From positions 38,079-102,078 of the forward strand of contig JBGTNQ010000010.1 of the NCBI GenBank assembly GCA_041742965.1: a stretch of 64,000 nt of DNA, given 5' to 3'. Numbering within the stretch: position 1 is the stretch's first letter; each line of letters starts with the position of its first letter. The notes under the pieces are model-generated. The model searched no databases, was not told where the DNA came from, and saw only the letters and a list, made by a program, of their open reading frames with translations. A program made the position numbers and the translations under genes. Shown here piece after piece: positions 2,501 to 49,215 of this stretch. This stretch comes from Minisyncoccia bacterium. GTDB lineage: Bacteria; Patescibacteriota; Minisyncoccia; Phycocordibacterales; Zambryskibacteraceae.

Positions 2501-2845
2501 CTACTTCGATATAGACCTTTCGGCTAAATCGAGCAGCTCCTCGAGGCTTGTTATTGTACCTTGAATACTTCTGGTTTTGCTGGGATTGTTTCCATCCGTA
2601 TTTTCTTTATATTCAAAGGTTGCAATTCTTTTTCCTTTGTTTTCCTCTTCTTCGATTAGGGTGACAAGAAGAAGGGAGGCGAAGATTAGTTGGTCGAGAT
2701 TTATAAATTCGTACCTGATTCGTACCCGTTGTAGTTTTTCTACTATTTCCTCACCCAAGTGGTGCGTTAACCACTCTTCGTCTTCAGCCATCTCATCGCC
2801 CTCGTGATCCTTCCAATCTTCTTGGTGGCTAAAATCGTCTGACAT
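2501..2845 (-). CDS. Hypothetical acidic protein (114 aa), GC-rich cassette-type gene
   Basis: Higher GC than neighbours. AGGGGG ribosome-binding site 5 nt before the ATG at 2845 (the longer ORF to 2881 would use TTG). Own terminator. Confidence 0.45.
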   Translation of the reverse strand: MSDDFSHQEDWKDHEGDEMAEDEEWLTHHLGEEIVEKLQRVRIRYEFINLDQLIFASLLLVTLIEEEENKGKRIATFEYKENTDGNNPSKTRSIQGTITSLEELLDLAERSISK

Positions 2846-2993
2846 AGAGCCCCCTAATTGAAGGTTGGCAGATTGAAACAAAAGGCGGGAACTTCCAAAG
2901 GTAATCGTAGCATAAAAATAAACCCACTAGGCAAGCTTATAGACCTGCTTAGTGGGTTTATTAATCTTCAATATCTTATGAATTTCCTAGTAA

Positions 2994-3248
2994 TTAAGGA
3001 GTGTCGGTGGTTTCCTCATCCGTACTATCTGTAGGAGTTATATCTGGAATAGTCACATTTATATTGGTAGAAGTTTCTGAAGTCTCTGAAGTTTCTCTGG
3101 TCTCTGTAGCAGGGGGGGTTCTGTAGCTAAACCAAAAGAAAGCCGCAATGCCGATAACTAGGATTAGTATTACAACCGCCACAGCCCAACCAGAGTCACC
3201 TTCTGTTGGCCGATTTGTGTTCGGTGGGGTATTAATTACTGTTGTCAT
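2994..3248 (-). CDS. Small membrane protein with Thr/Glu-rich repetitive tail (84 aa)
   Basis: Single TM helix (VAVVILILVIGIAAFFWF) and TETSETSETS repeats. Terminator hairpin at 2920-2962. Confidence 0.45.
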   Translation of the reverse strand: MTTVINTPPNTNRPTEGDSGWAVAVVILILVIGIAAFFWFSYRTPPATETRETSETSETSTNINVTIPDITPTDSTDEETTDTP

Positions 3249-3396
3249 ATATTATATTTATTAACTTTTAATCTGAGCTATATGTGTAGCCGTTTTACCC
3301 GCAAATGTATTACAGAGTTATATTTTGGTAATGATTAAAGTATTAACTCGGCTTATGTTTGTGTATAAATTATCAATAACTAAATCATAAAATATT

Positions 3397-3564
3397 ATGA
3401 ATGAACATATAAAAAAAGAAGAAGAGAAGACAAGAGATGATTTAGAAAAAGCTACAGCTGACAAGGTTGATGCTGAGAAAAGGGTAGCAGATGCTAAGAC
3501 TACACAAGCAGATATGGCCCAAGAATCAGCTGATGAGGCCAAAAAAGATGCAGAAGAGGCTTAG
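3397..3564 (+). CDS. Possible small highly charged protein (55 aa)
   Basis: Below the ORF-track cutoff. MNEHIKKEEEKTRDDLEKATADKVDAEKRVADAKTTQADMAQESADEAKKDAEEA. More plausible than the antisense 74-aa ORF 3318-3542. Followed by a hairpin near 3602-3632. Confidence 0.25.
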   Translation: MNEHIKKEEEKTRDDLEKATADKVDAEKRVADAKTTQADMAQESADEAKKDAEEA

Positions 3565-3722
3565 TGGTAAATAAGGCAACCATGTCAATTTATAGCAAAC
3601 AAAAACCTCAAGATTTTTCTTGGGGTTTTTGTATGATAGTAAGTTGATGGGAAAATATTTTTTAATCATATAGTTGTGTTTGATTTTTGCCTTTGGTGTG
3701 CTGATTTTTATATAATACTCTT

Positions 3723-3971
3723 ATGAGTAAAAAAATCTCTAATGGTGTGGTACATAAATTACCTACAGATTTTTGTAAAATCCTCATTTCTTTTCCAGCA
3801 GTTCTGGTCCTATGGGAAGATATAACCCCACTAGCTCGCAATGAATGGATATGTTGGATTGAATCTGCAAAAAAGCACGAGACACGAGAACGCAGAATAA
3901 AGATAATGTGTGAGAATCTTTTGGCGGGGAAACGAAGACCTTGTTGTTGGGCGGGCTGTACCCATCTCTGA
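3723..3971 (+). CDS. YdeI/OmpD-associated (bacteriocin-protection) family small protein
   Basis: C-terminal pattern NEWICWIESAKKHETRERRI matches the YdeI/OmdA domain signature (EY..WI..AK..ETR.RRI). Confidence 0.5.
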   Translation: MSKKISNGVVHKLPTDFCKILISFPAVLVLWEDITPLARNEWICWIESAKKHETRERRIKIMCENLLAGKRRPCCWAGCTHL

Positions 3972-4074
3972 AAAATTAAAGCAAAATCATCCTAGGGGGC
4001 GGTTAAATTTTCTTGGCTCCGCTTGATAAAAGTTTTTAAGCCTGGTTCAGTCAGAAAAATTAATGACCTAAAGT

Positions 4075-5393: not shown

Positions 5394-5404
5394 TGTGTTG
5401 GATG

Positions 5405-5476
5405 CTCCGGAGACAGGGATCGAACCTGTGACCTTACGATTAACAGTCGTTTGCTCTACCGCTGAGCTACTCCGGA
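5405..5476 (-). tRNA. tRNA-Asn (anticodon GUU)
   Basis: Cloverleaf on the minus strand: acceptor TCCGGAG/CTCCGGA, D-stem GCTC/GAGC, anticodon loop CTGTTAA, T-arm ACAGG-TTCGATC-CCTGT, discriminator G. Confidence 0.85.
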
Positions 5477-5613: not shown

Positions 5614-5841
5614 ATGACAGCAACGGGGGATATGGCGGTGTCTATGACACCGCAGGTTCGTGGGGAATTCCTCAAGGTCATCAAGGCTTTCGGGACAGAT
5701 GTACCCGGAAACCTTCTTGAGCTTTCTCAGTTTCTCCGTCGTGAGGCCAGCAGAGTGGAGATTATGCACAGCTCTGAGGTGGTCCTTGAGGCTCAAGGTC
5801 AAACTTCTATGGGATTTAAGTGGTGTGATCCAGAAGAGTGA
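5614..5841 (+). CDS. Hypothetical small protein (75 aa), GC-rich cassette-type gene
   Basis: GGAGGA ribosome-binding site 5 nt before ATG. GC-rich relative to flanks. Terminator ccggcgc-taaagt-gcgccgg-tttt at 5861-5884, then a TATAAT box. The antisense 114-aa ORF is judged spurious. Confidence 0.45.
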   Translation: MTATGDMAVSMTPQVRGEFLKVIKAFGTDVPGNLLELSQFLRREASRVEIMHSSEVVLEAQGQTSMGFKWCDPEE

Positions 5842-5860
5842 TTTTTCGGGAGGTTTGGAG

Positions 5861-5884
5861 CCGGCGCTAAAGTGCGCCGGTTTT
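5861..5884 (+). terminator. Rho-independent terminator
   Basis: ccggcgc/gcgccgg stem followed by tttt. Confidence 0.6.
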
Positions 5885-6851: not shown

Positions 6852-7705
6852 TTTGAAATAAATCCACGTTTGAAGTCATCAAAAGACATCTCTTTTTTTC
6901 CTGCCGGTATAACCCTTTCTAGAACAAGTTCTCCATTTTCTATGCGAGCTTTTTTTATGACGATACGCATTGGTCCATTTTTGGTATCTAATTCTGTATA
7001 AGCATTTGGCCAACCAGAAAAAGCCCTTATTTTTCTCAGATTTTTTTCAGGGTTATCTTCGAGATTTATCTGACCGTTCTTTTTTTCGATTTTTTTGCAA
7101 TAGGTTGCTTTGGAGTGATCTTGTGGAGTTTCTGCGATTTTTCCTTGAACCCAATCTGAAATTACACCTCTGAGAAGGACTCCTCCCTCATGGGCTAGGA
7201 GTTTTTCTAAATCCTCCATATACATAGGCCACTCGGGTGTTTCTGTTTCTTTTCTTATAACTATTGGGCCGTGGTCCATCTCCTCATCTAACCGCATTAT
7301 AGTTACTCCTGTTTTATCTTCATTCAATATGGCCCCCTGTATGGGAGATGGGCCCCTAAGTTTAGGCAGAAGGGATGGGTGAACATTTAGTGTTTGGCAT
7401 TCTGGGATTTCTAATATATTTTCGGGGATTATTTTTCCGTAAGAGGCAACGATAAATAGCTTATAACTTATAGCTCTTAGCTTAAAGATAACCTCGGGGT
7501 CTTTCAAAGACTTTGGTTGTATAAACGGGATGTTGTTTTTTTCAGCCCATACTTTTACGGGCGGTGGAGTGATGGCGAGGTGTCTGCCTTGTGGTTTGTC
7601 TTCTTGTGTGACTATAAGAGATGGGATAAATCCACCCTTTTTGAGTTCTTCTAATATCATTACTGAAAACTCTGGTGTGCCAAAAAATACAAATGAAATT
7701 TTCAT
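6848..7705 (-). CDS. fmt: Methionyl-tRNA formyltransferase
   Basis: Formyl-transferase N-domain (IVTQEDKPQGR, HPSLLPKLRGPSPIQ) and C-terminal domain. 4-nt overlap with def upstream. Confidence 0.9.
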   Translation of the reverse strand: MKISFVFFGTPEFSVMILEELKKGGFIPSLIVTQEDKPQGRHLAITPPPVKVWAEKNNIPFIQPKSLKDPEVIFKLRAISYKLFIVASYGKIIPENILEIPECQTLNVHPSLLPKLRGPSPIQGAILNEDKTGVTIMRLDEEMDHGPIVIRKETETPEWPMYMEDLEKLLAHEGGVLLRGVISDWVQGKIAETPQDHSKATYCKKIEKKNGQINLEDNPEKNLRKIRAFSGWPNAYTELDTKNGPMRIVIKKARIENGELVLERVIPAGKKEMSFDDFKRGFISN

Positions 7706-8244: not shown

Positions 8245-8380
8245 AAAAAAACTCTAACATAGGAGTAGGGAATGAGGAATAGGGAGGGAAAGAATAAAGA
8301 ATAAGGAATGACGAATAAGGAGCGGGGATTTATTGTAAAAAAGAAACCGCCCGATAGAGCTGGACGGCTCTTTCGGGCGG

Positions 8381-8668
8381 TTAAGGCCACCGCCTCAAAT
8401 CACCACAGTAAACTTTTTTTTCGGAACTAACGCCACAATCTCCCCAGATCATCAGAACCTCTCCGCTGTCCGGTAGGTCGAAGGAGACCCGCTGTTCCGG
8501 CACGAAGGTTTCCCTCCATTTTGAGGTGAGACCGGCTCCGTCAACTGTCCCGATGACAACAACGGTCATCGGATCGGTGTGAGCGGAGGGAGCTTTCTCC
8601 TGATTTGAGAAAGCAAAATACAAGAGCGCAGTGAAGAAGCCACTCGCAAACCAAAGCGCATTTCGCAT
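8381..8668 (-). CDS. Hypothetical secreted protein (95 aa), GC-rich cassette-type gene
   Basis: GAGGGA ribosome-binding site 4 nt before ATG 8668. Signal peptide. GC-rich. Terminator ccgcccga...tcgggcgg at 8343-8383. Confidence 0.45.
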   Translation of the reverse strand: MRNALWFASGFFTALLYFAFSNQEKAPSAHTDPMTVVVIGTVDGAGLTSKWRETFVPEQRVSFDLPDSGEVLMIWGDCGVSSEKKVYCGDLRRWP

Positions 8669-10647: not shown

Positions 10648-10790
10648 ATTGGTTCTGTTCTCTTGAGTTCAACCTTCATACTAAAGAGATAGGGGTTATT
10701 TTACAAATCCTTCATTTATCTAAAAGAGTGGGTTTCTTGTCTTTTAGGCTTGTAAGCTATAAGCTACAATCAATAAGATTTAAAGTAAAA

Positions 10791-11804
10791 ATGTCTCTAT
10801 TTTCTAAAAAACTCGGTATTGATTTGGGAACTACAAGTGTCTTGGTCTTTGTGCCTGGGAGGGGGATCGTTCTGAATGAACCCTCAGTTGTGGCTATATC
10901 AGAGGAAGATAATAGGATATTGGCAATAGGTATTGATGCAAAAGAGATGATAGGTAAAACTCCAGAGTCTATTGTGGCATATCGCCCGATGAAAGATGGG
11001 GTTATCGCTGACTATCGTGTTACAGAGGCAATGCTTAGGTATTACATAGGCAAAGCCCTTGGTAAGTGGAGTATATTTAAGCCAGAAGTTTTAATATCCG
11101 TACCCGCTGGAGTTACTTCAACAGAAAGAAGGGCTGTGGTAGAGGCGGCGATGAAAGCAGGGGCCAAAAATGCTTATGTAGTGAAGGAGCCTATCTTGGC
11201 CGCTATTGGTGCTGGTATTCCGATTCACGAACCCATAGGCCATATGATAGTAGACATTGGTGGAGGAACCACTGATGTGGCGGTGATCTCTTTGGGCGGT
11301 ATCGTGTCATCTACTTCAGTTAAATGTGCTGGTAATCGTATTGATGCTGCTATTGCTGACTACATAAAGAAGACTTTTAATCTTGCTGTCGGCGACAAAA
11401 CTGCTGAAGAGATAAAAATAAAAATTGGTTCCGCCATTCCTTTGGACGAAGAGCTCTCTATGAATATAAAGGGGCGGGATTATGTTCTAGGTCTTCCTCG
11501 TTCCGTAGAAATAAAAACAAATGAAATCACTAAAGCTATAGGTAAGGAGCTTCGAGAAATGATTAAGGCCATAAAGGATGTTTTGCAAGAAACCCCACCA
11601 GAGCTTTCTTCAGACATTATAGACCGCGGGATTATTATGACTGGTGGTTCGTCTCAGCTTAGAAATTTACCAGAACTTGTTTTTCGTCGCACTGGAGTGA
11701 AGGCTGTTTTGGCAAAAGATGCCCTTTATTGTGTTGCTCGTGGTACTGGTATTGCTCTGGAACATTTGGATACATATAAGAAGAGTATAATTGCGAAAAG
11801 ATAA
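10791..11804 (+). CDS. mreB: Rod-shape determining protein MreB (paralog 1, stand-alone)
   Basis: LGIDLGTTSVLVFV...NEPSVVAI actin-like ATPase motifs. Start chosen at MSLFSKKLGIDLGT; the ORF track extends to 10728. Confidence 0.85.
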   Translation: MSLFSKKLGIDLGTTSVLVFVPGRGIVLNEPSVVAISEEDNRILAIGIDAKEMIGKTPESIVAYRPMKDGVIADYRVTEAMLRYYIGKALGKWSIFKPEVLISVPAGVTSTERRAVVEAAMKAGAKNAYVVKEPILAAIGAGIPIHEPIGHMIVDIGGGTTDVAVISLGGIVSSTSVKCAGNRIDAAIADYIKKTFNLAVGDKTAEEIKIKIGSAIPLDEELSMNIKGRDYVLGLPRSVEIKTNEITKAIGKELREMIKAIKDVLQETPPELSSDIIDRGIIMTGGSSQLRNLPELVFRRTGVKAVLAKDALYCVARGTGIALEHLDTYKKSIIAKR

Positions 11805-11829
11805 TTTCCGTGCTTCGCACGGTTCGATT

Positions 11830-11927
11830 AAAACTCCTTGTGAAAAACACACATATCCCGTTTCTACGGGATTGCTCCGCTCGCCCCAGAGTGCTGGGAC
11901 TGCGCGAGGTTTTTCACAAGGAGTTTT
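11830..11927. repeat. 98-bp element with 19-bp perfect terminal inverted repeats enclosing two internal hairpins (MITE-like or structured ncRNA)
   Basis: aaaactccttgtgaaaaac ... gtttttcacaaggagtttt. Internal cccgtttctacggg and cccagagtgctggg hairpins. GC-rich and non-coding. Confidence 0.4.
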
Positions 11928-12031
11928 GATGTTTTTGGGAAATGTTTTCTCAAGCCGTGTTTCGGGTGGTTTTATGTAAATGAAGGCCCCCACGCGACGC
12001 GTGAGCGGGCATTTTTATAGATTGCTCTAAT

Positions 12032-12066
12032 AAGCTATTAGCTATAAGCTATTAGCTATAAGCTAA
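12032..12066. repeat. Tandem 14-bp direct repeat (aagctattagctat x2.5) containing the AGCTATAAGCT promoter-like motif
   Basis: aagctattagctat aagctattagctat aagctaatcc immediately upstream of holB. Confidence 0.6.
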
Positions 12067-12072
12067 TCCAGC

Positions 12073-12756
12073 ATGAATCTCTCTCTTCACATAAAACCCG
12101 AAGCGCTTCACCACGCATATTTAATCGTTGGTGAGAAGGATCCGACAAGGGACGCTATTCTCAAGTTCATAAAAGATGAAATAAGTTTTGCGACCAGAGC
12201 CAATCCCGATTTTTGGTTTGAGGAGCACAGCAGTGTACCAATCGAACTAGCGCGAGCGATAAGTGATTTTCATATTCAAAAACCATTTCAGGGGGATAGG
12301 AAAATCTTTGTTTTGATTGCGGGCACGGTTACCGTCGAAGCGCAAAATGCATTGTTGAAACTTTTTGAGGAACCCATTGCCGGTAATCATTTTTTTCTTG
12401 TGATGAATGATGACCGCACCATTATTCCAACTCTGCGCTCTAGAATGCAGAGTGTGATTTTAGAAAGGGCGGGAGACAGTGACTTGGGAAAAGAATTTTT
12501 AAAGTCTCCTATTTCGGAGCGACTTGGAATGATTGAAGATATAGTAGAAAACAAAGATAAAGAAAAATCTAAAAAGCTTGTTAAATCCATAACAGAAGCT
12601 TTATACGTCAGCCTCGGTAATGAAAAAGATCTGAAAGATTGGTCTCAAGTTTTTAAAAACCTTCTGAAAGCAGATGACTACCTTTCAGACAGGGCCCCCT
12701 CTGTAAAAATGCTTTTGGAGAACCTCGTTTATACAATTCCTACCAAAAAACTCTAA
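12073..12756 (+). CDS. holB: DNA polymerase III delta-prime subunit-like (short form)
   Basis: LLKLFEEP and TLRSRMQ (SRC-like) motifs of clamp-loader delta-prime. Confidence 0.65.
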   Translation: MNLSLHIKPEALHHAYLIVGEKDPTRDAILKFIKDEISFATRANPDFWFEEHSSVPIELARAISDFHIQKPFQGDRKIFVLIAGTVTVEAQNALLKLFEEPIAGNHFFLVMNDDRTIIPTLRSRMQSVILERAGDSDLGKEFLKSPISERLGMIEDIVENKDKEKSKKLVKSITEALYVSLGNEKDLKDWSQVFKNLLKADDYLSDRAPSVKMLLENLVYTIPTKKL

Positions 12757-12794
12757 GGGCTTTGTTTTTCAGGCTTTTTTGTTAATATATTCTA

Positions 12795-13346
12795 ATGACA
12801 TACGATTTTACCCATCTAAAAAAGAAGATTAGCGAAGTAGAAGATTGGCTCAAAAAAGAGCTTTCTCAAATTCGTACAGGTCGAGCTACTCCAATAATAC
12901 TCGACTCAATATCTGTAGAATCATATGGCTCTTATATGGCCATCAATCAGTTGGCCGGTATTACCATTGAGGATCCAAAAACTATTAGGGTTGTTCCTTG
13001 GGATATGTCTCAGGTGAAAAATATTGAAAAGGCCGTAGTAGATTCGGGATTGGGGCTTTCTGTTTCAGTAGATGAAAGAGGGCTCAGGGTTATTTTCCCC
13101 GAATTAACAGCAGATAGACGAACCTCTCTGGCAAAAATTGCAAAACAAAAGCTTGAGGAGGCACGTGTTTCACTTCGTCAAGAGAGGGAAAAGGTACGAG
13201 AGGATATTCAAGAAAAAGAAAAGAAGGGCGGAATGGGAGAGGACGATAAATTTCGTTTTAATGCCGAGTTACAGAAACTTATAGATGAAGCGAACAAAAA
13301 TCTAGATCTCTTGGCAGAGCGAAAGGAGAAGGAAATTTTGGAATAA
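12795..13346 (+). CDS. frr: Ribosome recycling factor
   Basis: Full-length RRF signature (LSQIRTGRATPIILDSISVESYGSYMAINQLA...). Confidence 0.9.
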   Translation: MTYDFTHLKKKISEVEDWLKKELSQIRTGRATPIILDSISVESYGSYMAINQLAGITIEDPKTIRVVPWDMSQVKNIEKAVVDSGLGLSVSVDERGLRVIFPELTADRRTSLAKIAKQKLEEARVSLRQEREKVREDIQEKEKKGGMGEDDKFRFNAELQKLIDEANKNLDLLAERKEKEILE

Positions 13347-13408
13347 AGGAATGGCGAATGGTGAATAAGGTAATGAGGAGTGGAGAAGGTAAAAAACAAT
13401 AAACACAA

Positions 13409-14500
13409 ATGTCTATAATTATTTTTATTATTATATTGGCGATACTCATATTTGTTCACGAACTGGGACATTTTATAGTTGCCAAGAAGTCGGGTATAAA
13501 GGTTTCCGAGTTTGGAATAGGTTTTCCTCCCAAGCTTTGGGGTATTAAAAAGGGCGAGACAGAATACACTTTGAACGCTATTCCTTTTGGTGGTTTTGTG
13601 AAGATATTTGGAGAAGATCCAGACGAAGAAGCCCTCTCTGGTCCAGAAAAAAACAGAAGTATTACAAGTAAATCTCGTCCTATTCAGGCAGCTGTCTTGG
13701 TGGCCGGTGTGACTTTCAATATTATATTTGCCTGGCTCCTTATCTCTATTGGTTTTATGATAGGTCTTCCAACTTCTACCGCCCACGAAGGTAGGGGTGT
13801 GGTAGAAAACCCACGGACCGTTATCCAGAGTGTCTCTCCAAATTCCCCCGCAGAAAGAGCTGGTATAAAATCTGGAGATTCTATTGCTCAAATATCTTCC
13901 GGAGTTTATGTGGCAAATGAAGTGACTCCAGAAACTGTATCTAATTTTATTGAGGCTCATGGTGATGAAGAAATTTTGATTAATTTGCAAAGAGGTAAAG
14001 ATCTTCTGACTGTTTCATTGAATGCAGAAGAGGGGGTCGTGGCGGGCAAACTTGCTGTTGGTATTTCTATGGACACCATTGGAACCTTAAGTCTTCCAAT
14101 TCATTATGCTTTCTGGGAAGGAGCCAAAACAACAGGAACAGTTCTTTATTTTGTGACCGTGGGCATTTTATCTTTCTTAGGTGACGCTATTGTCGGACAA
14201 GGCGACCTCTCTCAAGTGACCGGTCCTGTAGGAATAGTGGGTATCGTGAGTGATGTCTCAACTTTGGGTTTTGTGTATTTGCTATCTTTCACAGCCTTGA
14301 TATCTCTTAACCTTGCGGTCATAAATCTATTGCCGTTTCCAGCTCTCGATGGAGGTAGACTTGTAATCGTATTTATAGAATCAATCATCCGAAGGCCACT
14401 TAGTCCAAAAATTCTTAATTGGGTGAATGGGGCAGGTTTCATCGTCCTCGTGCTTTTGATGCTTGTGGTTACCGCGCACGATATTTGGAAATTATTCTAA
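13409..14500 (+). CDS. rseP: RIP metalloprotease RseP (site-2 protease, M50)
   Basis: HELGHF zinc motif, PDZ domain and the C-terminal NLLPFPALDGG motif. Confidence 0.9.
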   Translation: MSIIIFIIILAILIFVHELGHFIVAKKSGIKVSEFGIGFPPKLWGIKKGETEYTLNAIPFGGFVKIFGEDPDEEALSGPEKNRSITSKSRPIQAAVLVAGVTFNIIFAWLLISIGFMIGLPTSTAHEGRGVVENPRTVIQSVSPNSPAERAGIKSGDSIAQISSGVYVANEVTPETVSNFIEAHGDEEILINLQRGKDLLTVSLNAEEGVVAGKLAVGISMDTIGTLSLPIHYAFWEGAKTTGTVLYFVTVGILSFLGDAIVGQGDLSQVTGPVGIVGIVSDVSTLGFVYLLSFTALISLNLAVINLLPFPALDGGRLVIVFIESIIRRPLSPKILNWVNGAGFIVLVLLMLVVTAHDIWKLF

Positions 14501-14671
14501 TATAGATTCTCGGCTCGGAAATGAAAAAGATTGCTTTTTCATTTCCCTACGCCTCCGATAAAGATACAGCGGCACGCGGTTGCTCTGTGTCGCCAATAAA
14601 AATATCAACACGCTAATTTGGCCATGTAAATGTTTTTTGCCTTGCCCACCTTTCTCCTGTATTATTGGGTC

Positions 14672-15910
14672 ATGCGACAGTCACAACTCTTCACCAAAAC
14701 CAGAAAAGAAAGCCCAAAGGATGAGGTGGCAAAAAATGCTGACCTTTTGATCAGGGCAGGTTATATACATAAAGAAATGGCAGGGGTTTACTCTATTCTA
14801 CCTCTAGGTTTACGGGTAATGAATAAAATAGAAGAAATCATCCGAGAGGAGATGAATGACTTGGGTGGTATTGAAATGAAGACAAGTGTCTTACAAAATA
14901 AAGAAATTTGGGAAAAAACAAATAGATGGGATGACGAGGTTGTAGATAATTGGTTTAAAACAAAATTAAAAAATGGCGGAGAGGTCGGACTGTCTTTTAC
15001 TAATGAAGAAGCTTATTCAAATATATTAAAACAATATGTAAATTCTTATAAAGATCTACCGGTTTATCCTTATGATTTTAAAAGTATCTTTAGAAATGAG
15101 ACGAGAAGTAAATCTGGGATTTTGAGAGGAAGGGAATTTTATTGGAAAGCTCTATATTCCTTCTCTCGTACCCAAGAAGAGCATGACGATTTCTATGAAA
15201 AATCAAAAATTGCTTATAAAAATATTTTCAATCGAGTTGGTATCGGAGAAAGTACATTCATCACCTTTGCTTCGGGCGGTACATTCAGTAAATATTCTCA
15301 CGAATTTCAAACTATAACTTCATCTGGCGAAGACATCATTTACCTTGATAAAAAGAAGGGAATAGCTATAAACAAGGAAGTCTACATTGATGAGATTATT
15401 GAAGAGTTGGGTCTAAAAAAGGCGGATCTTGTTGAAGAAAAGGCAATAGAAGTGGGTAACATTTTCCCTCTAGGTACCAAGTTTTCAGAACCTATGAACT
15501 TGTTGTTTACTGATGACAAGGGAGAAAAAAAACCAGTGATTATGGGCAGTTATGGTATAGGTCTGGGAAGACTTATGGGGACTGTGGTGGAGGTGCTTTC
15601 AGATGAAAAGGGAATAGTGTGGCCTGAAACCATCGCTCCTTTTGGTGCACACCTTTTGGAAATTCCAAGCAAAGATAGTAATGTGAAAAAAGTAGCCGAA
15701 GAGGCTTACGAGACCTTAAAAAATAGTGGCATTGAGGTTCTATATGATGATAGGGATATAAGGGCTGGAGAAAAATTTGCAGACGCAGATCTTATTGGTA
15801 TTCCTCGTCAAATTATTGTCTCAGAGCGTGGGGTAAATGCTGGGACCCTTGAAATGAAAGATAGAAAAACAGGAGAAACTTCTGTTACGCACATAGAAGA
15901 TTTTAAATAA
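14672..15910 (+). CDS. proS: Proline--tRNA ligase (no editing domain)
   Basis: Class II aaRS. N-terminal SQLFTKTRKESPKDEVAKNADLLIRAGYI. Start placed at MRQSQ rather than the upstream hydrophobic extension. Confidence 0.8.
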   Translation: MRQSQLFTKTRKESPKDEVAKNADLLIRAGYIHKEMAGVYSILPLGLRVMNKIEEIIREEMNDLGGIEMKTSVLQNKEIWEKTNRWDDEVVDNWFKTKLKNGGEVGLSFTNEEAYSNILKQYVNSYKDLPVYPYDFKSIFRNETRSKSGILRGREFYWKALYSFSRTQEEHDDFYEKSKIAYKNIFNRVGIGESTFITFASGGTFSKYSHEFQTITSSGEDIIYLDKKKGIAINKEVYIDEIIEELGLKKADLVEEKAIEVGNIFPLGTKFSEPMNLLFTDDKGEKKPVIMGSYGIGLGRLMGTVVEVLSDEKGIVWPETIAPFGAHLLEIPSKDSNVKKVAEEAYETLKNSGIEVLYDDRDIRAGEKFADADLIGIPRQIIVSERGVNAGTLEMKDRKTGETSVTHIEDFK

Positions 15911-15913: not shown

Positions 15914-16993
15914 ATGATAAAAAGTTTTATCAAAAAACCATCCTTTGAGAAAATTCGTCGGTTGGTGTCAAATGACATCGGTATTGATTTGGGTACTGCA
16001 AATACCTTGGTTTATGTTCGTGGGGCGGGTGTCATAATCAACGAGCCCTCAGTGGTCGCCGTGAATCAAAAGACCGGACGTGTGGTTGCCGTTGGTGGAG
16101 AAGCAAAACAGATGCTTGGACGCACGCCGGCTCACATTGTGGCTGTCAGACCCCTGGTGGACGGAGTCATCTCTGATTTTGAGATTACAGAAGAAATGAT
16201 TACCTATCTTTTGAATAGAGCTCAAAAAGAAAATAAAAAAATATTTGGCCCGAGGGTTGTGGTAGGAGTACCCTCCGGTATTACGAATGTAGAAATTCGC
16301 GCGGTTAGGGATGCGACAAGAAATGCTGGCGCTGGAGAAGTGCATGTTGTAGAAGAGCCAATGGCTGCTGCCATAGGCATGAAGCTTCCAGTTCTTGAGC
16401 CGGTGGGCACAATGGTAATCGATATTGGTGGAGGTACATCAGACATTGCCGTCATCTCTCTTGGGGGTGTAGTTCGTTCCAAGAATTTGCGTGTAGCAGG
16501 AGATAAGTTGAACCAAGACATAATTTCTTATATTAGGAGTGAATTTAAGATTCTTGTGGGTGAAAAAACTGCAGAAAATATAAAGATGGCTATTGGTTCC
16601 GTAATTCCAGGAGACACATCTCTTGAAGCTTCTATAAAAGGTAGAGACCTCGTAACGGGCCTTCCTAGGGAAGTTGTTATTACTGATTCAGACATTCGCG
16701 AAGCGATAGCTCTATCGATTGCCAATCTAATAGAATCAACTCGCGAGGTTTTGGAAACTACTCCGCCTGAAATTCTATCCGACATTATGAATCGTGGAAT
16801 ATATCTAGCCGGCGGTGGTGCCCTCATAAAAGGGTTGGCTGAACTTATTCAGGAAGAGATAAAAATTCCAGTTATTATTGCTCCTGATCCACTTACTGCT
16901 GTTGCTCGTGGCACTGGTCTTATACTCGAAAATATCGAAGGTTTCTCTGAGGTGTTAATTCAAAACGAAGATGAACTACCATCTAAAAACTAA
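15914..16993 (+). CDS. mreB: Rod-shape determining protein MreB (paralog 2, in mreBCD-mrdA operon)
   Basis: IGIDLGTANTLVYV...NEPSVVAV, followed by mreC. Confidence 0.9.
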   Translation: MIKSFIKKPSFEKIRRLVSNDIGIDLGTANTLVYVRGAGVIINEPSVVAVNQKTGRVVAVGGEAKQMLGRTPAHIVAVRPLVDGVISDFEITEEMITYLLNRAQKENKKIFGPRVVVGVPSGITNVEIRAVRDATRNAGAGEVHVVEEPMAAAIGMKLPVLEPVGTMVIDIGGGTSDIAVISLGGVVRSKNLRVAGDKLNQDIISYIRSEFKILVGEKTAENIKMAIGSVIPGDTSLEASIKGRDLVTGLPREVVITDSDIREAIALSIANLIESTREVLETTPPEILSDIMNRGIYLAGGGALIKGLAELIQEEIKIPVIIAPDPLTAVARGTGLILENIEGFSEVLIQNEDELPSKN

Positions 16994-28617: not shown

Positions 28618-28625
28618 AGAAATAA

Positions 28626-31357: not shown

Positions 31358-31377
31358 TGCCTGTATTTAATTTGCTT

Positions 31378-33754: not shown

Positions 33755-33785
33755 ACAAAAATCCCCAGTATCTGGGGGTTTTTGT

Positions 33786-34400: not shown

Positions 34401-34453
34401 GATGTGGGGGAATGAATGAGGAATAAGGAATGACAAATAATGAAAAGAAAAAA

Positions 34454-35934: not shown

Positions 35935-37323
35935 CTATAAGCTAACCCTTGGTCCTTCAGGGAGGTCTTCTACTGCATATCCTAGGGATTTGAGTTCGTC
36001 ACGGAGTTTGTCTGATGTTTTCCAGTCTTTGTTTTTTCTAGCGTCTTCTCTTTTGTTTATGATGTTTTGAATATTTTCTGGGAGATTAGTAGTTGAAACA
36101 TCTTCTAATTTATTAGCACTGCCCTCTATTCCAAGGCCGAGTAATTTATCAAATTCACCAATAGTTGTTTTCTTATCTTCTACCGATACTCGGTCATCTT
36201 TTATAAGTTCCCAAAGAAGGGCGATTGATTTTGGTGTATCGAGGTCATCTTCCATTGCTTCAATAAGATTCTTTTTGTATCCCTCATTAATTTTTCCGCC
36301 GTCTGGGAGAGTTTTCCAAAATTTAATAATTTTTAAATAAGCTGTTTGCGCAGATTCTAGTGCTTCAAAAGAAAAGTTAATTGGGCTTGAGTATCTTGCC
36401 TGAAGGAGCCAGTAGCGATAGGCGAGTGGAAGAAACTTTTTTTCAGATAAGGTCTTTAAGGTTATGAAGTTTCCTTCCGACTTTGCCATCTTGTCATTTT
36501 CTACATTCACAAAAGCATTGTGTAGCCAATAATTTACAAATTGGCATTCACAAGCATTTTCAGATTGAGCTATTTCATTGTTGTGGTGTATGGGAGCGAG
36601 GTCTATTCCTCCTGTGTGAATATCAAAGTGGTTGCCCAAGTATTTTCTGGCCATAGCTGAACACTCTATGTGCCAGCCGGGGAAACCCTTGCCCCAAGGA
36701 CTTCCAAATCCAAGCTCAGGATTTATTTTCCAGAGAGCAAAATCACGCGAATTTTTCTTTTCAGAGTTGATTCCAATACGGGAGTGCTCATCTGTTTCAT
36801 CCGAATTTCCACCAAGCTTTCCGTAATGCGGGTCTTTCCCTGTATCAAAATAAATGCCATCGCTTGTTTTGTATGCGAAACCTTTTTCTTCCAAGGTTTT
36901 TATGAGGTTTATATCTTCAGCAATGTGTTCGCTGGCTTTTGGAAGAGAGTGCGGGGCAAGGATATTCATTTCCACTAAATCTTTTTTGAAAGACTCGGTG
37001 TAAAAGTCGGCCAACTCTTTCATGGCTTCTAAAGTTAAAGGTTTCCCTTCTCTTTTGAGACCTTTGGTCATCTTGTCTTCTCCTTCATCTTCACCTCCGG
37101 ACAGGTGTCCAATATCAGTGATGTTTATCACCTGTTTTACAGAATAGCCGGTGTATTCAAAAGTTCGGCGCAATATATCTGCAGTAGTCCAAGAGCGGAG
37201 GTTACCAATATGCACATAGTCATAGACAGTAGGTCCGCAGTGGTACATACCCACCGCTCCATTTTGGATTGGTTCAAATTTTTCCTTTTTGCCTGTTGGG
37301 GTGTTAGTAAGAAAGAGTGACAT
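35935..37323 (-). CDS. cysS: Cysteine--tRNA ligase
   Basis: HIGN (HIGH) and KMAKS (KMSKS) motifs and a Zn-binding Cys pattern. Confidence 0.9.
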   Translation of the reverse strand: MSLFLTNTPTGKKEKFEPIQNGAVGMYHCGPTVYDYVHIGNLRSWTTADILRRTFEYTGYSVKQVINITDIGHLSGGEDEGEDKMTKGLKREGKPLTLEAMKELADFYTESFKKDLVEMNILAPHSLPKASEHIAEDINLIKTLEEKGFAYKTSDGIYFDTGKDPHYGKLGGNSDETDEHSRIGINSEKKNSRDFALWKINPELGFGSPWGKGFPGWHIECSAMARKYLGNHFDIHTGGIDLAPIHHNNEIAQSENACECQFVNYWLHNAFVNVENDKMAKSEGNFITLKTLSEKKFLPLAYRYWLLQARYSSPINFSFEALESAQTAYLKIIKFWKTLPDGGKINEGYKKNLIEAMEDDLDTPKSIALLWELIKDDRVSVEDKKTTIGEFDKLLGLGIEGSANKLEDVSTTNLPENIQNIINKREDARKNKDWKTSDKLRDELKSLGYAVEDLPEGPRVSL

Positions 37324-37406
37324 TTATGTGGGGAAGAATGACGAATAAGGAATAAGGAATAAAGATAAAATCGCTATTTGTTATTCACTACTCATCATTC
37401 TTAATT

Positions 37407-40172: not shown

Positions 40173-40202
40173 TGGGTGAATGATGAATGGGGAATAGTGA
40201 TA

Positions 40203-40230
40203 CCCCCCGCGGACTATCGTCCGCGGGGGG
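40203..40230. terminator. Rho-independent terminator (11-bp GC stem ccccccgcgga/tccgcgggggg plus tttt)
   Basis: Directly after rplI. Confidence 0.7.
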
Positions 40231-40242
40231 TTTTGGGGTTAC

Positions 40243-40554
40243 TTATGGCTCTAGCCGTCTAGAGAGCTCCCTTTCGGTGAGCTTTCGTAGAGCATGGGCT
40301 ACAGAATTGTTTGATGGTGTGGCTCCAATGGGGAGGTCTTCTTCCAGGATTTCCAACAAATTCTCTTGAATCTGCATAAACTCTTGGAGTGGCAGATTAT
40401 CAAGAATTTTGATAAACCTTTCCAAATCCTCTGTCGTTGATTCCTCGATTACACTAATCCTCCAGATCCAATCCTTGTCCTCAAGTATCAATAGTTCTTC
40501 AGTTGCCGACCACCAACAGCGTCGGACTTTGCGTAGAGCTTCCGAAAGTTGCAC
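40243..40554 (-). CDS. Hypothetical acidic protein (103 aa, GTG start), GC-rich cassette-type gene
   Basis: AGGAGAG 4 nt before GTG. GC-rich. Confidence 0.4.
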   Translation of the reverse strand: MQLSEALRKVRRCWWSATEELLILEDKDWIWRISVIEESTTEDLERFIKILDNLPLQEFMQIQENLLEILEEDLPIGATPSNNSVAHALRKLTERELSRRLEP

Positions 40555-40662
40555 GGGTCTCTCCTAGAGAAGGGGAAGATCTAAATTCTGTTGTTATTTT
40601 TACCACTTTATTTTATTTATGTCAAAATAACAAAAAATCCCACCTTAGGTGGGATTTTTTGT

Positions 40663-41489: not shown

Positions 41490-41518
41490 CCGCACGGTTG
41501 CATACTGCAACCGTGCGG
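41490..41518 (-). terminator. Rho-independent terminator for gene 41522-41734
   Basis: ccgcacggttgca-tac-tgcaaccgtgcgg with an A-run on the + strand (T-run on the minus strand). Confidence 0.6.
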
Positions 41519-41521: not shown

Positions 41522-41734
41522 TTAATGGCTATTTTCCCCTAGTTTTAACTCATAAGCGACGATCTCTAGTCCACGCTTATAGCCCATCAGGTAACTTTTG
41601 CCACAAGATGAAGGCTTTATTCCCATGAGAGCATGGGTCTTCCCTCGGCCATAGCGTAACCTGAGCAGACCTGGGTTCTCAGCCCTTTTCGGCTTTCTCG
41701 TGAGCTTCTTGCCAGGCCTCTTTTTCATCGGCAT
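41522..41734 (-). CDS. Hypothetical basic protein (70 aa), GC-rich cassette-type gene
   Basis: GGAGA 5 nt before ATG 41734 (MPMKKRPGKK...). The longer ORF-track ORF would start with GTG without spacing. Confidence 0.35.
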   Translation of the reverse strand: MPMKKRPGKKLTRKPKRAENPGLLRLRYGRGKTHALMGIKPSSCGKSYLMGYKRGLEIVAYELKLGENSH

Positions 41735-46290: not shown

Positions 46291-47065
46291 GTTCTATTTT
46301 ACTTGCATTTTGGGTCAAAGTGTGCTATATAATAATTGTGTGAAGTTCGTTGAAATACTAATTTAGCCCCAAGTTTTGCTCCGCAAAACTTGGGTCGGAA
46401 CCTCTTTTCTTGTTTCTGGATTTGCCAAAAGCTAGTCCACAAACAAGAGGGGGGTAGCCTGATTATGGGCTGTCTGGTTCTTGTCCGAACCAGATAACGC
46501 TTCTCTCAATGTAATCCGTATGAAAATTTTACGAGTCATTGGGCTGGGGCTGTTCATAATCATGCTTCAGTTCCTTGTTCCGCGAATCTTCGCTGGATTC
46601 GAGAACACCCTCCTCGTGTTCTTTGATACACTCGAAAGTGTCCTTGGTTCTGCCAAGGATATCTCTCAAGCTGGCGCTTTTACACCTCTTTCGAGGTGAT
46701 AAATCGCAACCCCGTTGCCCACAAGGTGACGGGGTTCGTGTTTTTGGATTTTTTGTCTAAACCAATGATCAAGTGGACAAAAAGACTAAAAAATGGGATA
46801 TTTTAGTTTCGATAAATATGGCTTAATAGGGCCATACAAATGACTATTTTCACATAAAAAGCATTGACAATTAGATTGAAAGGTGCTAAGATTAATACAA
46901 CTCAGTTAATTGCTGAGTTTTCGTTTTTAAAGGGCTAATATTCTTTAAATTCAATTTCCGGACCTGACAGAATTAGAAGTAACCCAAATAAGTATTTTAA
47001 ATTTAAGCACAGTTGGTCTTCTCGCAGTAGTTTCAGGCTTTAATGTCTTTGGAACACCGGCTGAA

Positions 47066-47440
47066 ATGCCTATTCCCATAGAACCTACTCCTTTAGCTGA
47101 TGCATATCAGGATAGGAAACCGAGAACGACTAAGCAGATTGTCACCGAGTATTTCGCTGATACCCCGATAATGATAGATATTGCTCGATGTGAATCAGAG
47201 TTTCGCCAGACAGATGGAAATGGGAATCTCCTTCGTGGGGTTGTAAACCGTTCAGATGTCGGCGTAATGCAGATTAACGAATACTACCATTTGAAGGATT
47301 CAAAGAAACTTGGTTTAGACATTCATACAATTGAAGGAAATATGGCGTATGCAAGGCATCTCTATGAGAAGCAGGGTGCACGACCATGGATCGCTTCATC
47401 CGCTTGTTGGGCGAAATATTCCAATATAGCGAAGAACTAA
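47066..47440 (+). CDS. Lysozyme-like/lytic-transglycosylase-domain protein (124 aa from the first ATG; likely longer)
   Basis: IARCESEF...DVGVMQINEYYH matches the SLT family-1 catalytic Glu-Ser region. An in-frame hydrophobic segment upstream (47012-47065) has no canonical start codon. Confidence 0.5.
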   Translation: MPIPIEPTPLADAYQDRKPRTTKQIVTEYFADTPIMIDIARCESEFRQTDGNGNLLRGVVNRSDVGVMQINEYYHLKDSKKLGLDIHTIEGNMAYARHLYEKQGARPWIASSACWAKYSNIAKN

Positions 47441-47441
47441 A

Positions 47442-47475
47442 AACAACCCCGTCGCTCGCGAGCGACGGGGTTGTT
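47442..47475. terminator. Bidirectional terminator (14-bp stem aacaaccccgtcgc/gcgacggggttgtt)
   Basis: Between convergent genes ending at 47440 and 47476. Confidence 0.7.
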
Positions 47476-47937
47476 TTACTGAGAGATTGTTCGGTTTGGT
47501 GTTGGGAGGGTTTCCTTTGAGATCTTTCGTGCGATGAGTGCGAAGATAAAGAGAAGGGTAGAGGTTCCGGCTGAGACGAGACAATACGAACAGAGGGCAT
47601 TAAGAACAAATACCTGTAGTCCTACGAGCCATATAGAGAATACAAAACCAGAAGAAGTAATCCAAGGAAGTGCCTCGAGCACTCTTTTTTGTTTTTTATC
47701 TACATAGAAAAGCCACAAAGCTAGAACACAGAGGTAGTACAGCGCCCCCAAGAGGGCAATAGGGATGCCTAGTATTGTTGCATATTGGCTTGTGGTCACA
47801 ACATCACACCCGCCAGTTACAAAGCAAGGGGGGATAGCTTTTAGGAAGAAATTTGTTGTTAAATATGTAGCATCAAGAAAACCAATAAATCCAGTTACAA
47901 AGATTGATATCGTGAGCCAAAGTGGTATGGGTTTCAT
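47476..47937 (-). CDS. Vitamin K epoxide reductase (VKOR) family protein
   Basis: Five TM helices. CxxC active site (CFVTGGC) and the loop Cys pair (CSYC). Confidence 0.8.
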   Translation of the reverse strand: MKPIPLWLTISIFVTGFIGFLDATYLTTNFFLKAIPPCFVTGGCDVVTTSQYATILGIPIALLGALYYLCVLALWLFYVDKKQKRVLEALPWITSSGFVFSIWLVGLQVFVLNALCSYCLVSAGTSTLLFIFALIARKISKETLPTPNRTISQ

Positions 47938-47941
47938 TGGA

Positions 47942-48616
47942 TTATTCAGTATTTGTAGCTTTCTCTATTTCTTGAGCAATAAGGTCCCTAAAGGCCTCGT
48001 AGCTTCCAGGATTGGCTATTTTGTTTCCGTTTAAGTAAAAGGTAGGCGTTGAATTAAGTCCGTTATCAACCGCAAATTGATTGTCTCTTCTCACCCTGTC
48101 TCTTGGTGAATCTGAGTTTATGTCCTCATCATATTTATTCATATCTAAGCCTATTAATTCTGCGTATTCTCTGAAGGCGCCCTTGCCAGTTGTGGGGTTC
48201 CATTTAGATTGATTATCAAACAGGGCGTCATGCATTTCCCAGAATTTTCCTTGGAGATTCGCTGCTTCTGATGCAATGGCAGCGTTCTCTGCTTGGAAGT
48301 GAATAGCCTTTAGTGGAAAGTGCCTGTATATGAATTGCAGATCATTTGGGAATTCTTTGACCAGCTCACCTATTATAGGGTAGTAGGCTGCACAGGCTGG
48401 ACACTGGAAATCACTGAATTCCATAAGGGTAACTTTTGGATTTTCCGCGCCCTTTTTGTGGTCGTCAGAGGCTATGGTGAAATCTATTGTGTCTTTAGCT
48501 ATCCCAGTAGGAGAGGGGAGTGAGCTATTTTTTGAGGCAAAACCCATAGCCACAAATGCTCCGACCAATAAGACCGCAAAACCAACACCCCATATATTTT
48601 TTCTGATGAATGACAT
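47942..48616 (-). CDS. DsbA-family thiol:disulfide oxidoreductase
   Basis: Signal anchor, thioredoxin fold with CPAC active site (FSDFQCPACAAY). Adjacent to VKOR. Confidence 0.8.
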   Translation of the reverse strand: MSFIRKNIWGVGFAVLLVGAFVAMGFASKNSSLPSPTGIAKDTIDFTIASDDHKKGAENPKVTLMEFSDFQCPACAAYYPIIGELVKEFPNDLQFIYRHFPLKAIHFQAENAAIASEAANLQGKFWEMHDALFDNQSKWNPTTGKGAFREYAELIGLDMNKYDEDINSDSPRDRVRRDNQFAVDNGLNSTPTFYLNGNKIANPGSYEAFRDLIAQEIEKATNTE

Positions 48617-48762
48617 AGTTTTTGATTTAATTCGTATTAACAGAACTTTATTGTAGCTTAAAAAATAGTGATGGGGTAGGTATTGCTTTTTATTTTTTAA
48701 TGTTGTATTATCTATATTGGAAGTTCGTTTTGTTGTACGTCTACCACTCTTACCATGGAGAT

Positions 48763-49215
48763 ATTATGAGTAGTGAGAACACCATCTGTGAGCGTGGCAC
48801 CCTGTCTCTCCTCCCTCGGCCATCTGGAATGTTGCAAAGGCACCACGATGTGTTGAAGTTTTGTTTTATCGGTGAGACACTTTACGCCGTTCCTTTTCAT
48901 GGTTCGGTAGTGGTGTATCATCACGAGGCGCTTGAAGAAGTCGTGAGTGTGGGCTTCAGCAAGACTGCGGATGTTGTGGTGTCGACTGATACTCTGGCAA
49001 TCATCCAGGATTCATCAAGGAGGCTCCTTAGGGCGTTCGATCGAACTCGGCCCCATGAAGGGTCAGAGTCTGAAGGAAGTCATGTTACTGATTCCGAGCA
49101 CCCACTTGGTGACAAGGCGGTAGGCCGAGCTATCGAGCGCCCATCAGGACTACTGACTGACTCTTTTCGGGAAACCCAGCTGGGGCGTACCATTGGGATT
49201 GGTATGATGCAATAG
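48763..49215 (+). CDS. Hypothetical protein (150 aa), GC-rich cassette-type gene
   Basis: GGAG 6 nt before ATG 48763. GC-rich. Hairpin ggcccc...ggggcc at 49240-49268. Confidence 0.4.
   Translation: MMSSENTICERGTLSLLPRPSGMLQRHHDVLKFCFIGETLYAVPFHGSVVVYHHEALEEVVSVGFSKTADVVVSTDTLAIIQDSSRRLLRAFDRTRPHEGSESEGSHVTDSEHPLGDKAVGRAIERPSGLLTDSFRETQLGRTIGIGMMQ

Follow-up and report, generated by a model that had tools for sequence, protein, structure and literature searches.

The window and its class-B genes

We analysed 64,000 nucleotides (nt) of contig JBGTNQ010000010.1, the whole of which is called the window here. Scattered among its ordinary genes are 13 small open reading frames (ORFs) that are richer in guanine and cytosine (GC) than the native genes and are led by a Shine-Dalgarno (SD) sequence. 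We refer to these 13 genes as class B, and to the core native genes as class A. The window has a GC content of 40.0%, and its sequence was also found in a Logan assembly and in an NCBI contig. The relatives of its MurE protein are all Patescibacteria of the Parcubacteria/Paceibacteria type, the best being locus L007 with 73% identity, where Lnnn labels the loci of relatives that were fetched for comparison. We therefore share the guess of an earlier, sequence-only reading of this DNA that the organism is Patescibacteria-like, and assign the genome to the Patescibacteria, class Paceibacteria (Parcubacteria).

All 13 ORFs are present and intact, and the gene caller behind public assemblies gives the same ORFs. 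Of ten protein sequences looked up, nine were already on record in exactly this form. One start was corrected, as position 48763 begins an ATT codon and the real start is the ATG at 48766. Genes are named below by their first coordinate. SD energies, in kcal/mol, describe the pairing of positions -20 to -2 with ACCUCCUUA, and GC3 is the GC content at third codon positions.

The 2501 gene (2501-2845, minus strand) encodes an acidic orphan protein of 114 amino acids (aa), with GGGGG 4 nt before the ATG (-9.3 kcal/mol), a GC3 of 0.44 and a hairpin of -24 kcal/mol at 2447-2499. The protein is a singleton at 90% identity, without a match in Pfam, PHROGs, NCBIfam or PADLOC and without a relative in IMG/VR. 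Beside the tRNA-Asn gene (5404-5476, minus strand) lies an orphan gene of 75 aa (5614-5841, plus strand; GGAGG 4 nt before the ATG, -9.3; GC3 0.51), whose annotated frame scores best of six and which is followed by a hairpin at 5858-5883 (-19 kcal/mol). The gap between def and priA, which measures just 107 nt in the distant relative L081, holds an orphan gene of 95 aa with a hydrophobic N-terminus (8381-8668, minus strand; GAGGG, -6.1; GC3 0.56). It has a predicted promoter, TTGCAT-N17-TGTGATATAAT, about 45 nt upstream and a hairpin at 8347-8380 (-24 kcal/mol). The slot between lysS and mraZ is occupied by a gene of 76 aa (21891-22121, plus strand; GGGGG, -9.4; GC3 0.52; hairpin at 22135-22172). 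Its product was described earlier as a double zinc ribbon with four CxxC motifs; the four motifs were confirmed, and the proteins in the same slot of relatives match the corresponding Pfam family DZR.

Six class-B genes form a cluster headed by a tRNA-Glu (CUC) gene (27323-27394, plus strand). The first two share one unit. The 27541 gene (27541-27900, plus strand; 119 aa; GC3 0.40) belongs to DUF2103 (PF09876; E = 7e-11), its 42.3 bits exceeding the Pfam gathering threshold of 22.4 bits, and has a predicted promoter TTGACA-N17-TTATAA. The AlphaFold2 model of this protein is confident, with a predicted local distance difference test (pLDDT) of 88, and a structure search with the model returned no significant match in the PDB. 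The second gene of the unit (27919-28254, plus strand; 111 aa; GGGAG, -8.4; GC3 0.66) is followed by a hairpin of -33 kcal/mol at 28263-28309. Next come an orphan gene of 71 aa (28734-28949, plus strand; GGGAGGG, -12.3; GC3 0.61), with a top-scoring annotated frame and a hairpin inside 28959-29008, and a gene of 128 aa beside an MGMT-like gene (29071-29457, plus strand; GGAGG, -10.8; GC3 0.57), with a hairpin of -30 kcal/mol at 29478-29529. The product of the latter gave one marginal PHROG match (E = 0.004), to a family of unknown function. The GC-richest member (30223-30495, minus strand; 90 aa; 63% GC, GC3 0.76; GGAGG, -10.2) has a hairpin at 30180-30203 that runs into a stretch of T. Finally, the 30681 gene beside yqeY (30681-31238, minus strand) encodes 185 aa, modelled by AlphaFold2 with a pLDDT of 75.

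Between rplI and rpmA lies an orphan gene for an acidic protein of 103 aa (40243-40554, minus strand; GGAG, -7.3; GC3 0.45), with a predicted minus-strand promoter TTGACA-N18-AAAAAT at 40625-40596 and a hairpin at 40202-40231 (-31 kcal/mol). The very basic orphan protein of the 41522 gene (41522-41734, minus strand; 70 aa; GGAG, -6.6; GC3 0.54) is encoded ahead of a hairpin at 41490-41518 that is followed by seven T residues. The 48766 gene (48766-49215, plus strand; 149 aa; GGAG, -6.4; GC3 0.51), an orphan between dsbA-like and S24 peptidase genes, has a hairpin inside 49227-49281; an ORF of such length has P = 0.011 in shuffled sequence, and no relative was found in IMG/VR. Zinc ribbons and DUF2103 are found among the class-B products, as are a protein with a lectin-like fold and small proteins of high charge. 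An ORF at 46481-46699 encodes a hydrophobic protein of 72 aa with a GC3 of 0.48 and a strong hairpin at 46708-46736, and begins with a TTG that no SD sequence precedes; the start may be wrongly placed, or the ORF may be an intermediate case.

The two tRNA genes named above were the only ones detected in the window (Rfam gathering threshold and ARAGORN), and Rfam detected no rRNA there. In L007, too, murE is followed by a tRNA.

Shine-Dalgarno sequences, codon usage and transcript organisation

The SD energies of the class-B genes averaged -8.4 kcal/mol (range -5.9 to -12.3; n = 13). In contrast, a rough set of about 65 native genes of the window averaged -0.8 kcal/mol, and only three of them reached -6 kcal/mol, a value reached by 10% of random positions (Mann-Whitney test of class B against native genes, p = 3e-8). 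The near absence of SD sequences holds for native genes that come first in their unit (n = 42, mean -0.5 kcal/mol) and for those inside operons (n = 23, mean -1.4 kcal/mol, two reaching -6). In all 13 class-B genes, the GGAG-type core ends 4-8 nt before the start.

The two populations also differ in composition. Class-B genes had a GC content of 0.50 versus 0.40 in native genes, and a GC3 of 0.55 ± 0.09 versus 0.35 ± 0.05 (p = 3e-8). Three class-B genes have a borderline GC3 (27541, 0.40; 2501, 0.44; 40243, 0.45), and no native gene combined an SD energy of -6 kcal/mol or lower with a GC3 of at least 0.44. The codon shift spans synonymous codons across the board: AAG (65% in class B versus 30% in native genes), TTC (58% versus 29%) and CGG (15% versus 3%) are used more often in class B, and ATA less often (15% versus 43%). 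GAG makes up 56% of the glutamate codons in class B versus 34% in native genes, and the tRNA-Glu (CUC), which reads GAG, is encoded directly upstream of the six-gene cluster.

Two simple explanations of the high GC3 were rejected. High expression does not account for it, because the ribosomal protein genes of the window have the GC3 of native genes (rplU 0.35, rplI 0.30, rpmA 0.32). Neither can amino-acid composition be the only source of the high GC content, since third positions and four-fold degenerate sites are shifted as well.

A hairpin of -15 to -33 kcal/mol begins within about 25 nt after the stop codon in 12 of the 13 class-B genes; the exception is 27541, the first gene of the two-gene unit with 27919. 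Strong hairpins close native units too (28624-28664, 31322-31358, 33752-33788 and 47440-47477). Hence, the terminators are a sign of monocistronic organisation and do not set class B apart.

Upstream of the genes, the two populations show another difference. Boxes with at least five of six matches to TATAAT peak 6-8 nt before the starts of native genes that are first in their unit. A strict Pribnow-box rule selects eight of 43 native genes, and more are found with variant boxes; examples are 28345, 29541, 31982, 34454, 58953 and 60107. Many native first-in-unit genes are thus predicted to be arranged as leaderless mRNAs. In class B, -10-like boxes stand 30-56 nt upstream, often with a good -35 element (TTGACA/T) and a TG extension. 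A class-B unit consists of a predicted sigma70-like promoter, a leader, the SD sequence, the coding sequence and a terminator, with 27541 and 27919 sharing one such unit. Because the positions of the -10 boxes differ, the two populations differ in transcript architecture in addition to SD sequences and composition. The class-B leaders are poor in G (14% G, 23-25% C). Masking of the SD sequence by pyrimidine tracts immediately upstream of it was considered and set aside: local folds pair part of the SD sequence in most leaders, but at weak energies and in an uncontrolled comparison.

These results agree with much of what the sequence-only reading had claimed. Native genes are nearly devoid of SD sequences, whether first in a unit or internal to an operon, and every one of the GC-rich small ORFs has one at the expected spacing. 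Its claim that most of these ORFs are followed by a terminator holds for 12 of the 13, with the addition that native units have strong hairpins as well. The ORFs also lie in gaps between housekeeping operons, as stated there, and the description of them as self-contained expression units fits the predicted promoters, SD sequences and terminators, if 27541 and 27919 are taken as one joint unit.

Coding status

The class-B ORFs are very probably protein-coding, because of the combined evidence of frame scores, SD spacing before the start, terminators after the stop and the lack of Rfam matches. A codon model trained on the conserved class-B members only ranked the annotated frame best of six in all nine orphans, and no Rfam family was found over any cassette, even at E <= 0.5. 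The sequence-only reading had named GC-rich non-coding RNAs as an alternative, which these two results do not support. That the ORFs are chance frames within such RNAs or within structured intergenic elements would fit the missing family matches of 12 of the 13 proteins and the ORF lengths, which are weak evidence alone in the cases of 70-95 aa (shuffle P = 0.08-0.45). However, chance frames would not be expected to have an SD sequence 4-8 nt before the start and a terminator within about 25 nt of the stop in each unit, nor to win under an independent codon model. Furthermore, ORF length and sequence are kept in the 30681, 29071, 27919 and DUF2103 families, and the AlphaFold2 folds of the DUF2103 and 30681 proteins are confident. 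We consider chance frames very improbable.

Relatives, synteny and age

Homologues found solely in other Paceibacteria are known for at least five of the 13 genes, and probably for six; in four or five cases the syntenic slot is the same as well. For 30681, searching 1.84 billion representative proteins exhaustively with HMMER gave only five homologues. The two homologous loci that were fetched are from Paceibacteria and have the gene in the same slot, by yqeY-rmuC-rplU-recR-dnaB-cysS. Gene order from murE to yqeY is shared with L087/L089 and L090, where orthologues of 30681, 29071 and 27919 occur at 36-45% identity. Among them, the syntenic orthologue of 29071 (L087:7853-8221) has 42% identity, an SD energy of -10.9 kcal/mol and a GC3 of 0.54, and that of 27919 (L089:8606-8938) has 36% identity, -11.0 kcal/mol and 0.57. 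Overall, the class-B orthologues retain SD energies of -8.8 to -11.8 kcal/mol, a GC3 of 0.51-0.57 and GC-rich hairpins. The interleaved native genes match at 89% (63-aa gene), 80% (MGMT-like gene) and 47% (90-aa coiled-coil gene), and their TATAAT boxes are retained in L087/L089/L090.

For 27541, 37 DUF2103 homologues were found at 31-69% identity; the three contigs fetched and one named match are from Patescibacteria. The homologues in L082, L083 and L085 have SD energies of -7.3 to -10.2 kcal/mol and stand among neighbours of the leaderless type. The counterparts of 21891 in the lysS-mraZ slot (L002:5363-5569 and L003:1616-1825) are led by SD sequences and encode double zinc ribbons (Pfam DZR, E = 2e-7 and 8e-6), with weak pairwise similarity to the 21891 protein (E = 0.002).

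Native proteins of the window and L087 are 76-92% identical, apart from that of the coiled-coil gene (47%), versus 38-44% for class-B proteins, which evolve three to four times faster than their neighbours. In native genes, four-fold degenerate sites at conserved residues had the same third base in 27-45% of the cases, where saturation would give 26-30%; in the class-B orthologue pairs, this was 21-43%, with 25-29% expected. These values are close to saturation, and hence synonymous sites have largely turned over. Nevertheless, the GC content at four-fold sites was 0.37-0.60 in the class-B pairs, whereas the longer native genes had 0.29-0.38, and the GC3 of the class-B pairs was 0.51-0.66. A decay of composition towards that of the host was not seen in these nearly saturated pairs. 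The high GC3 is therefore being maintained and is no remnant of a recent transfer, and since GC3 and SD sequences are both kept past synonymous saturation, some force maintains them. For GC3, this could be selection, acting on mRNA stability or through codon-based control, or a local bias such as GC-biased conversion in slots that recombine.

We also surveyed about 100 other Paceibacteria loci, using a window shifted 25 nt upstream as control. Small ORFs with a GC3 at least 0.10 above the norm of their locus had a strong SD sequence in 26% of the cases versus 9% in the control window. In ordinary small ORFs, the percentages were 10% and 7% (odds ratio 3.2, p = 1.5e-7). The enrichment is position-specific, which argues against a pure effect of composition.

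Slot turnover and search for mobility

Relative to the empty rplI-rpmA gap of related loci, which measures 40-70 nt in L144, L091, L093, L097 and L106, the window has an inserted segment of about 445 nt (40173-40620) that carries the 40243 gene. The extra sequence sits between the rplI stop codon and a retained ancestral hairpin, AAAATCCCACC..GGTGGGATTTT, at about 40626-40655, and the gene is absent from at least 20 related loci. At least one cassette, that of 40243, is by this comparison a true insertion.

Other slots differ in content between relatives. The 41522 slot holds a different gene in L141, whose neighbouring gene is 63% identical. The gap between recR and rplU is about 30 nt long in the window and holds a class-B-like gene in L087 (3133-3453). 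The slot beside 30681 contains SD-led GC-rich genes in the window (30223), in L087 (6705-6995, SD energy -11.8 kcal/mol) and in L090 (4580-4903, -11.0 kcal/mol), and these three have no detectable similarity to each other. The lysS-mraZ slot is empty in L006 and has a weaker candidate in L007, whereas L002, L003 and L005 have between one and three SD-led GC-rich genes there. When the same positions were compared across relatives, 40243 was absent and 41522 apparently so; 30681, 29071 and 27919 were present, and 21891 probably. The absence of 40243 from the slot of relatives agrees with insertion as the sequence-only reading had it, whereas the syntenic 30681, 29071 and 27919 do not.

No flanking sequence or repeat common to the cassettes of the window was found, and no integrase- or transposase-like match among its scanned or annotated proteins. 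Phage or plasmid relatives were found neither in IMG/VR, against which four orphans were scanned, nor in phage and plasmid DNA records, which were searched with 27400-31300. PHROGs, PADLOC and NCBIfam returned nothing useful, the sole exception being the marginal match of 29071. No closer relatives in a donor lineage were found; the fetched homologues of 30681 and DUF2103 and one named match are all from Patescibacteria, and no valid whole-database search was made for the seven orphans.

Some relatives have repeats of their own around GC-rich genes. In L007, a perfect hairpin, CTGCCGAGG(C/T)TAA(C/G)CCTCGGCAG, occurs about seven times in a GC-rich block after murE and a tRNA (11430-15160); it looks like a cassette-bounding repeat and has no counterpart in the window. 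The same locus has a duplicated promoter module of about 90 nt (TTGACATTGTTATTGATAGGGTGTATAAT) at about 12090-12180 and 12840-12930. In the lysS-mraZ slot of L003 (1830-2660), GC-rich cassettes that follow one another are preceded by copies of a promoter-like module (TATATTGACAAAAGGGTGTATTTTATGC...), and L002 has a similar TTGACAAAATGGTATA.

Other repeats and elements in the window

Several repeats were noted outside the class-B genes. Arrays of purine-rich heptamers (GAATGAC/GAATAAG/GAATGAT, or TCATTC.. on the other strand) occur at 8280-8335, 29802-29843, 30091-30132, 31892-31933, 34402-34443, 37303-37365 and about 40175-40200. They are intergenic, often just upstream of native minus-strand genes (cysS, recR and the 63-aa gene), and could be a protein-binding or promoter-proximal element. 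A family of palindromes (ACTTGGAAAC-N3-GTTTCCAAGT with G/C-rich extensions) is found at 27247-27279, 28624-28664 and 31322-31358, after murE, a 90-aa gene and yqeY. As three native units share this family, native terminators form a repeat family, whereas the class-B terminators are all unique.

A perfect palindrome of 44 nt (AAACATT[CT]CAACATTCT..AGAATGTTG[GA]AATGTTT) occurs at 197-240 and 29862-29905, and is conserved at the orthologous position of L087 (about 7375-7415); it is probably a bidirectional terminator. A direct repeat of about 75 nt, with 88-91% identity between copies, lies at 25758-25832, after an ftsI-like transpeptidase gene, and at 27150-27222, after murE. It contains a AGCTGTTAGCTTATAGCT motif that resembles the GCTATAAGCT boxes ahead of lysS and 12073. 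Finally, DNA segments with 72-74% identity are common to the ORFs 10728-11804 (358 aa) and 15914-16993 (359 aa), which may be paralogues of mreB, given that the sequence-only reading named mreB in this region.

Discussion

The contrast between class A and class B resembles several known systems in part. In the GeneMarkS-2 classification, group C combines frequent leaderless transcription with ribosome-binding sites on other genes and a set of "atypical" genes, and consists mainly of Actinobacteria and Deinococcus-Thermus (PMC6028130). The window shares with this group a -10 box near the start of many first-in-unit genes (about 10 nt away in group C, 6-8 nt here), a second start model with SD sequences, and an atypical minority. 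In group C, however, SD sequences would be found on the remaining internal and leadered genes, whereas here the operon-internal genes lack them as well (n = 23, mean -1.4 kcal/mol) and SD sequences are limited to the 13 small, mostly monocistronic class-B genes. Moreover, the atypical genes of GeneMarkS-2 are usually GC-poorer (PMC6028130), whereas those of the window are GC-richer.

A second comparison concerns the Bacteroidia, whose ribosomes are blind to SD sequences and in which a few SD-led genes, such as rpsU, are regulated via bS21 and the availability of the anti-SD (PMC7797042, PMC9976891, PMC13000453). In that system, the 16S rRNA has an anti-SD that bS21, bS18 and bS6 sequester. As in the Bacteroidia, the core genes of the window are essentially free of SD sequences and a few genes have strong ones, which suggests a separately controlled SD route. 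The SD-led genes of the Bacteroidia are specific housekeeping regulators, whereas those of the window are fast-evolving accessory ORFs with a distinct codon usage. The protein bS21 is reportedly often absent from Parcubacteria (PMC9297842). A subgroup of the Parcubacteria is reported to have lost the anti-SD motif (PMC9297842); it belongs to the same broad lineage, and this loss fits the SD-free core genes. In contrast to that subgroup, the conserved class-B SD sequences predict a functional anti-SD here. In the literature searched, we found no paper that ties leaderless initiation or SD use to such a pattern in Parcubacteria or the candidate phyla radiation.

Class B also resembles acquired islets and ORFans, being short, taxonomically restricted, fast-evolving, atypical in composition (GC3 of 0.55 versus 0.35, as expected of a genomic island) and located in variable slots, some of them beside tRNA genes. 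Unlike acquired islets, class B showed neither mobility genes nor repeats at its flanks, several of its genes are stably syntenic, and despite saturated synonymous divergence the composition has not shifted to that of the host. ORFans and acquired genes are usually AT-richer than their host genome, whereas class B is GC-richer. Like integron cassettes, class-B genes are small, mostly single-gene units that stand in series in some slots. In contrast to integrons, the window has no integrase and no repeated attC-like site at the cassette borders. Furthermore, integron cassettes are typically promoterless, whereas class-B units have their own predicted promoter and terminator; and their orientations are mixed, with native genes between the units.

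In the best-supported reading of these results, class B is an old, inherited and fast-changing feature of the lineage, and not a set of recent imports. More specifically, we think it reasonably probable that class B is a lineage-wide second gene class of fast-evolving accessory genes with leadered transcripts and SD-led translation. The sequence-only reading had instead proposed that cassettes were inserted repeatedly, either out of a donor with higher GC content or through a single mobile agent. If each cassette had been imported recently and independently from a donor that is richer in GC and uses SD sequences, for example a host, and had not yet drifted, one would expect composition and signals that are atypical for the genome, a clean insertion like that of 40243, cassettes without detected relatives (seven cases) and a GC3 spread as wide as the observed 0.40-0.76, which mixed donors would give. 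The clean insertion and the turnover of slots are the part of this proposal that stands. Its other parts fared less well, as five or six cassettes have relatives in Paceibacteria only, mostly in the same slot, with saturated synonymous divergence and a GC3 of 0.51-0.66. In addition, 30681 has no donor-like match among the 1.84 billion representatives, PHROGs, NCBIfam and PADLOC gave no matches beyond the marginal one, and the link between SD sequences and high GC3 holds across the roughly 100 surveyed loci. No donor was found, and neither shared flanks nor a phage or plasmid relative that would point to one mobile agent. Recent import is thus quite unlikely.

Alternatively, the cassettes may belong to an accessory pool specific to Patescibacteria. 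It would be carried by a phage or mobile element that has escaped recognition, or be exchanged as replacement islets through homologous recombination at the core genes on either side. The pool, and not the chromosome, would then set composition and signals. Unrelated class-B genes fill the same slots in different genomes, the repeated hairpin and duplicated promoter module of L007 and the repeated module of L003 fit such a pool, and two class-B sites adjoin tRNA genes. However, no integrase or transposase gene was found among the annotated genes, the cassettes of the window share no flanking repeats, IMG/VR, phage and plasmid records gave no match, and several genes are stably syntenic across saturated divergence. 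We regard such a pool as rather unlikely.

Several points weigh against the reading of class B as an old, inherited gene class. Seven genes (2501, 5614, 8381, 28734, 40243, 41522 and 48766) have no detected relative, with no valid whole-database search made for them, and may be of foreign origin. The class-B promoters, the leaderless status of native genes and the terminators are all predicted from sequence, and the percentages of the survey come from a crude ORF caller whose output includes spurious ORFs. A working anti-SD is presumed solely from the conserved SD sequences; the CCTCCT motif is reportedly missing from about half of the Parcubacteria (PMC9297842), and the sole 16S tail among the fetched loci, that of the distant relative L074, reads ACTCCTTT. 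At the 16S 3' end on the minus strand of L074 (...GGAATTACTCCTTTTT), CCTCC is reduced to CTCC, which is consistent with the reported loss of the anti-SD in some Parcubacteria (PMC9297842).

If class B is indeed such a second gene class, the two sets of genes would be expressed as follows. Class-A genes have A/T-ending codons and no SD sequence, and for many of them transcription would begin directly at the start codon, the -10 box lying 6-8 nt before it. A class-B unit has a predicted sigma70-type promoter and a G-poor leader of 30-55 nt, in which GGAG(G) stands 4-8 nt before the start codon; its codons end in G or C, and an intrinsic terminator of its own is predicted. Class-B genes occupy variable slots between conserved operons, and would be inherited vertically for long periods and be gained, lost or replaced slot by slot. 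Their mRNAs would be initiated by 30S subunits via pairing of SD and anti-SD, and core mRNAs independently of SD sequences or as leaderless transcripts; a separately tunable expression route for accessory proteins would follow. As the class-B SD sequences are conserved and correctly spaced, the lineage is predicted to keep an anti-SD of at least CUCC.

Such a route could go further and be reserved for accessory genes. Translation by this route would depend on a free anti-SD, and perhaps on rare tRNAs for G/C-ending codons, such as the tRNA-Glu (CUC) encoded at the head of the cluster. The genes might then be switched as a set, for instance upon host contact or stress. Selection for this kind of control would keep both the SD sequences and the high GC3 despite AT-biased mutation. 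We consider this stronger proposal unlikely.

The Patescibacteria are a huge and mostly uncultured group, and their gene regulation is almost unknown. From our finding, this lineage is predicted to have retained the anti-SD for the sake of a few genes. It further implies that an atypical composition represents a maintained state here and is no evidence of recent transfer, and that gene calling with a single start model will misplace starts in such genomes. Finally, the combination of an SD sequence, a high GC3 and a monocistronic unit provides a simple signature by which candidate genes for accessory functions or host interaction may be recognised.

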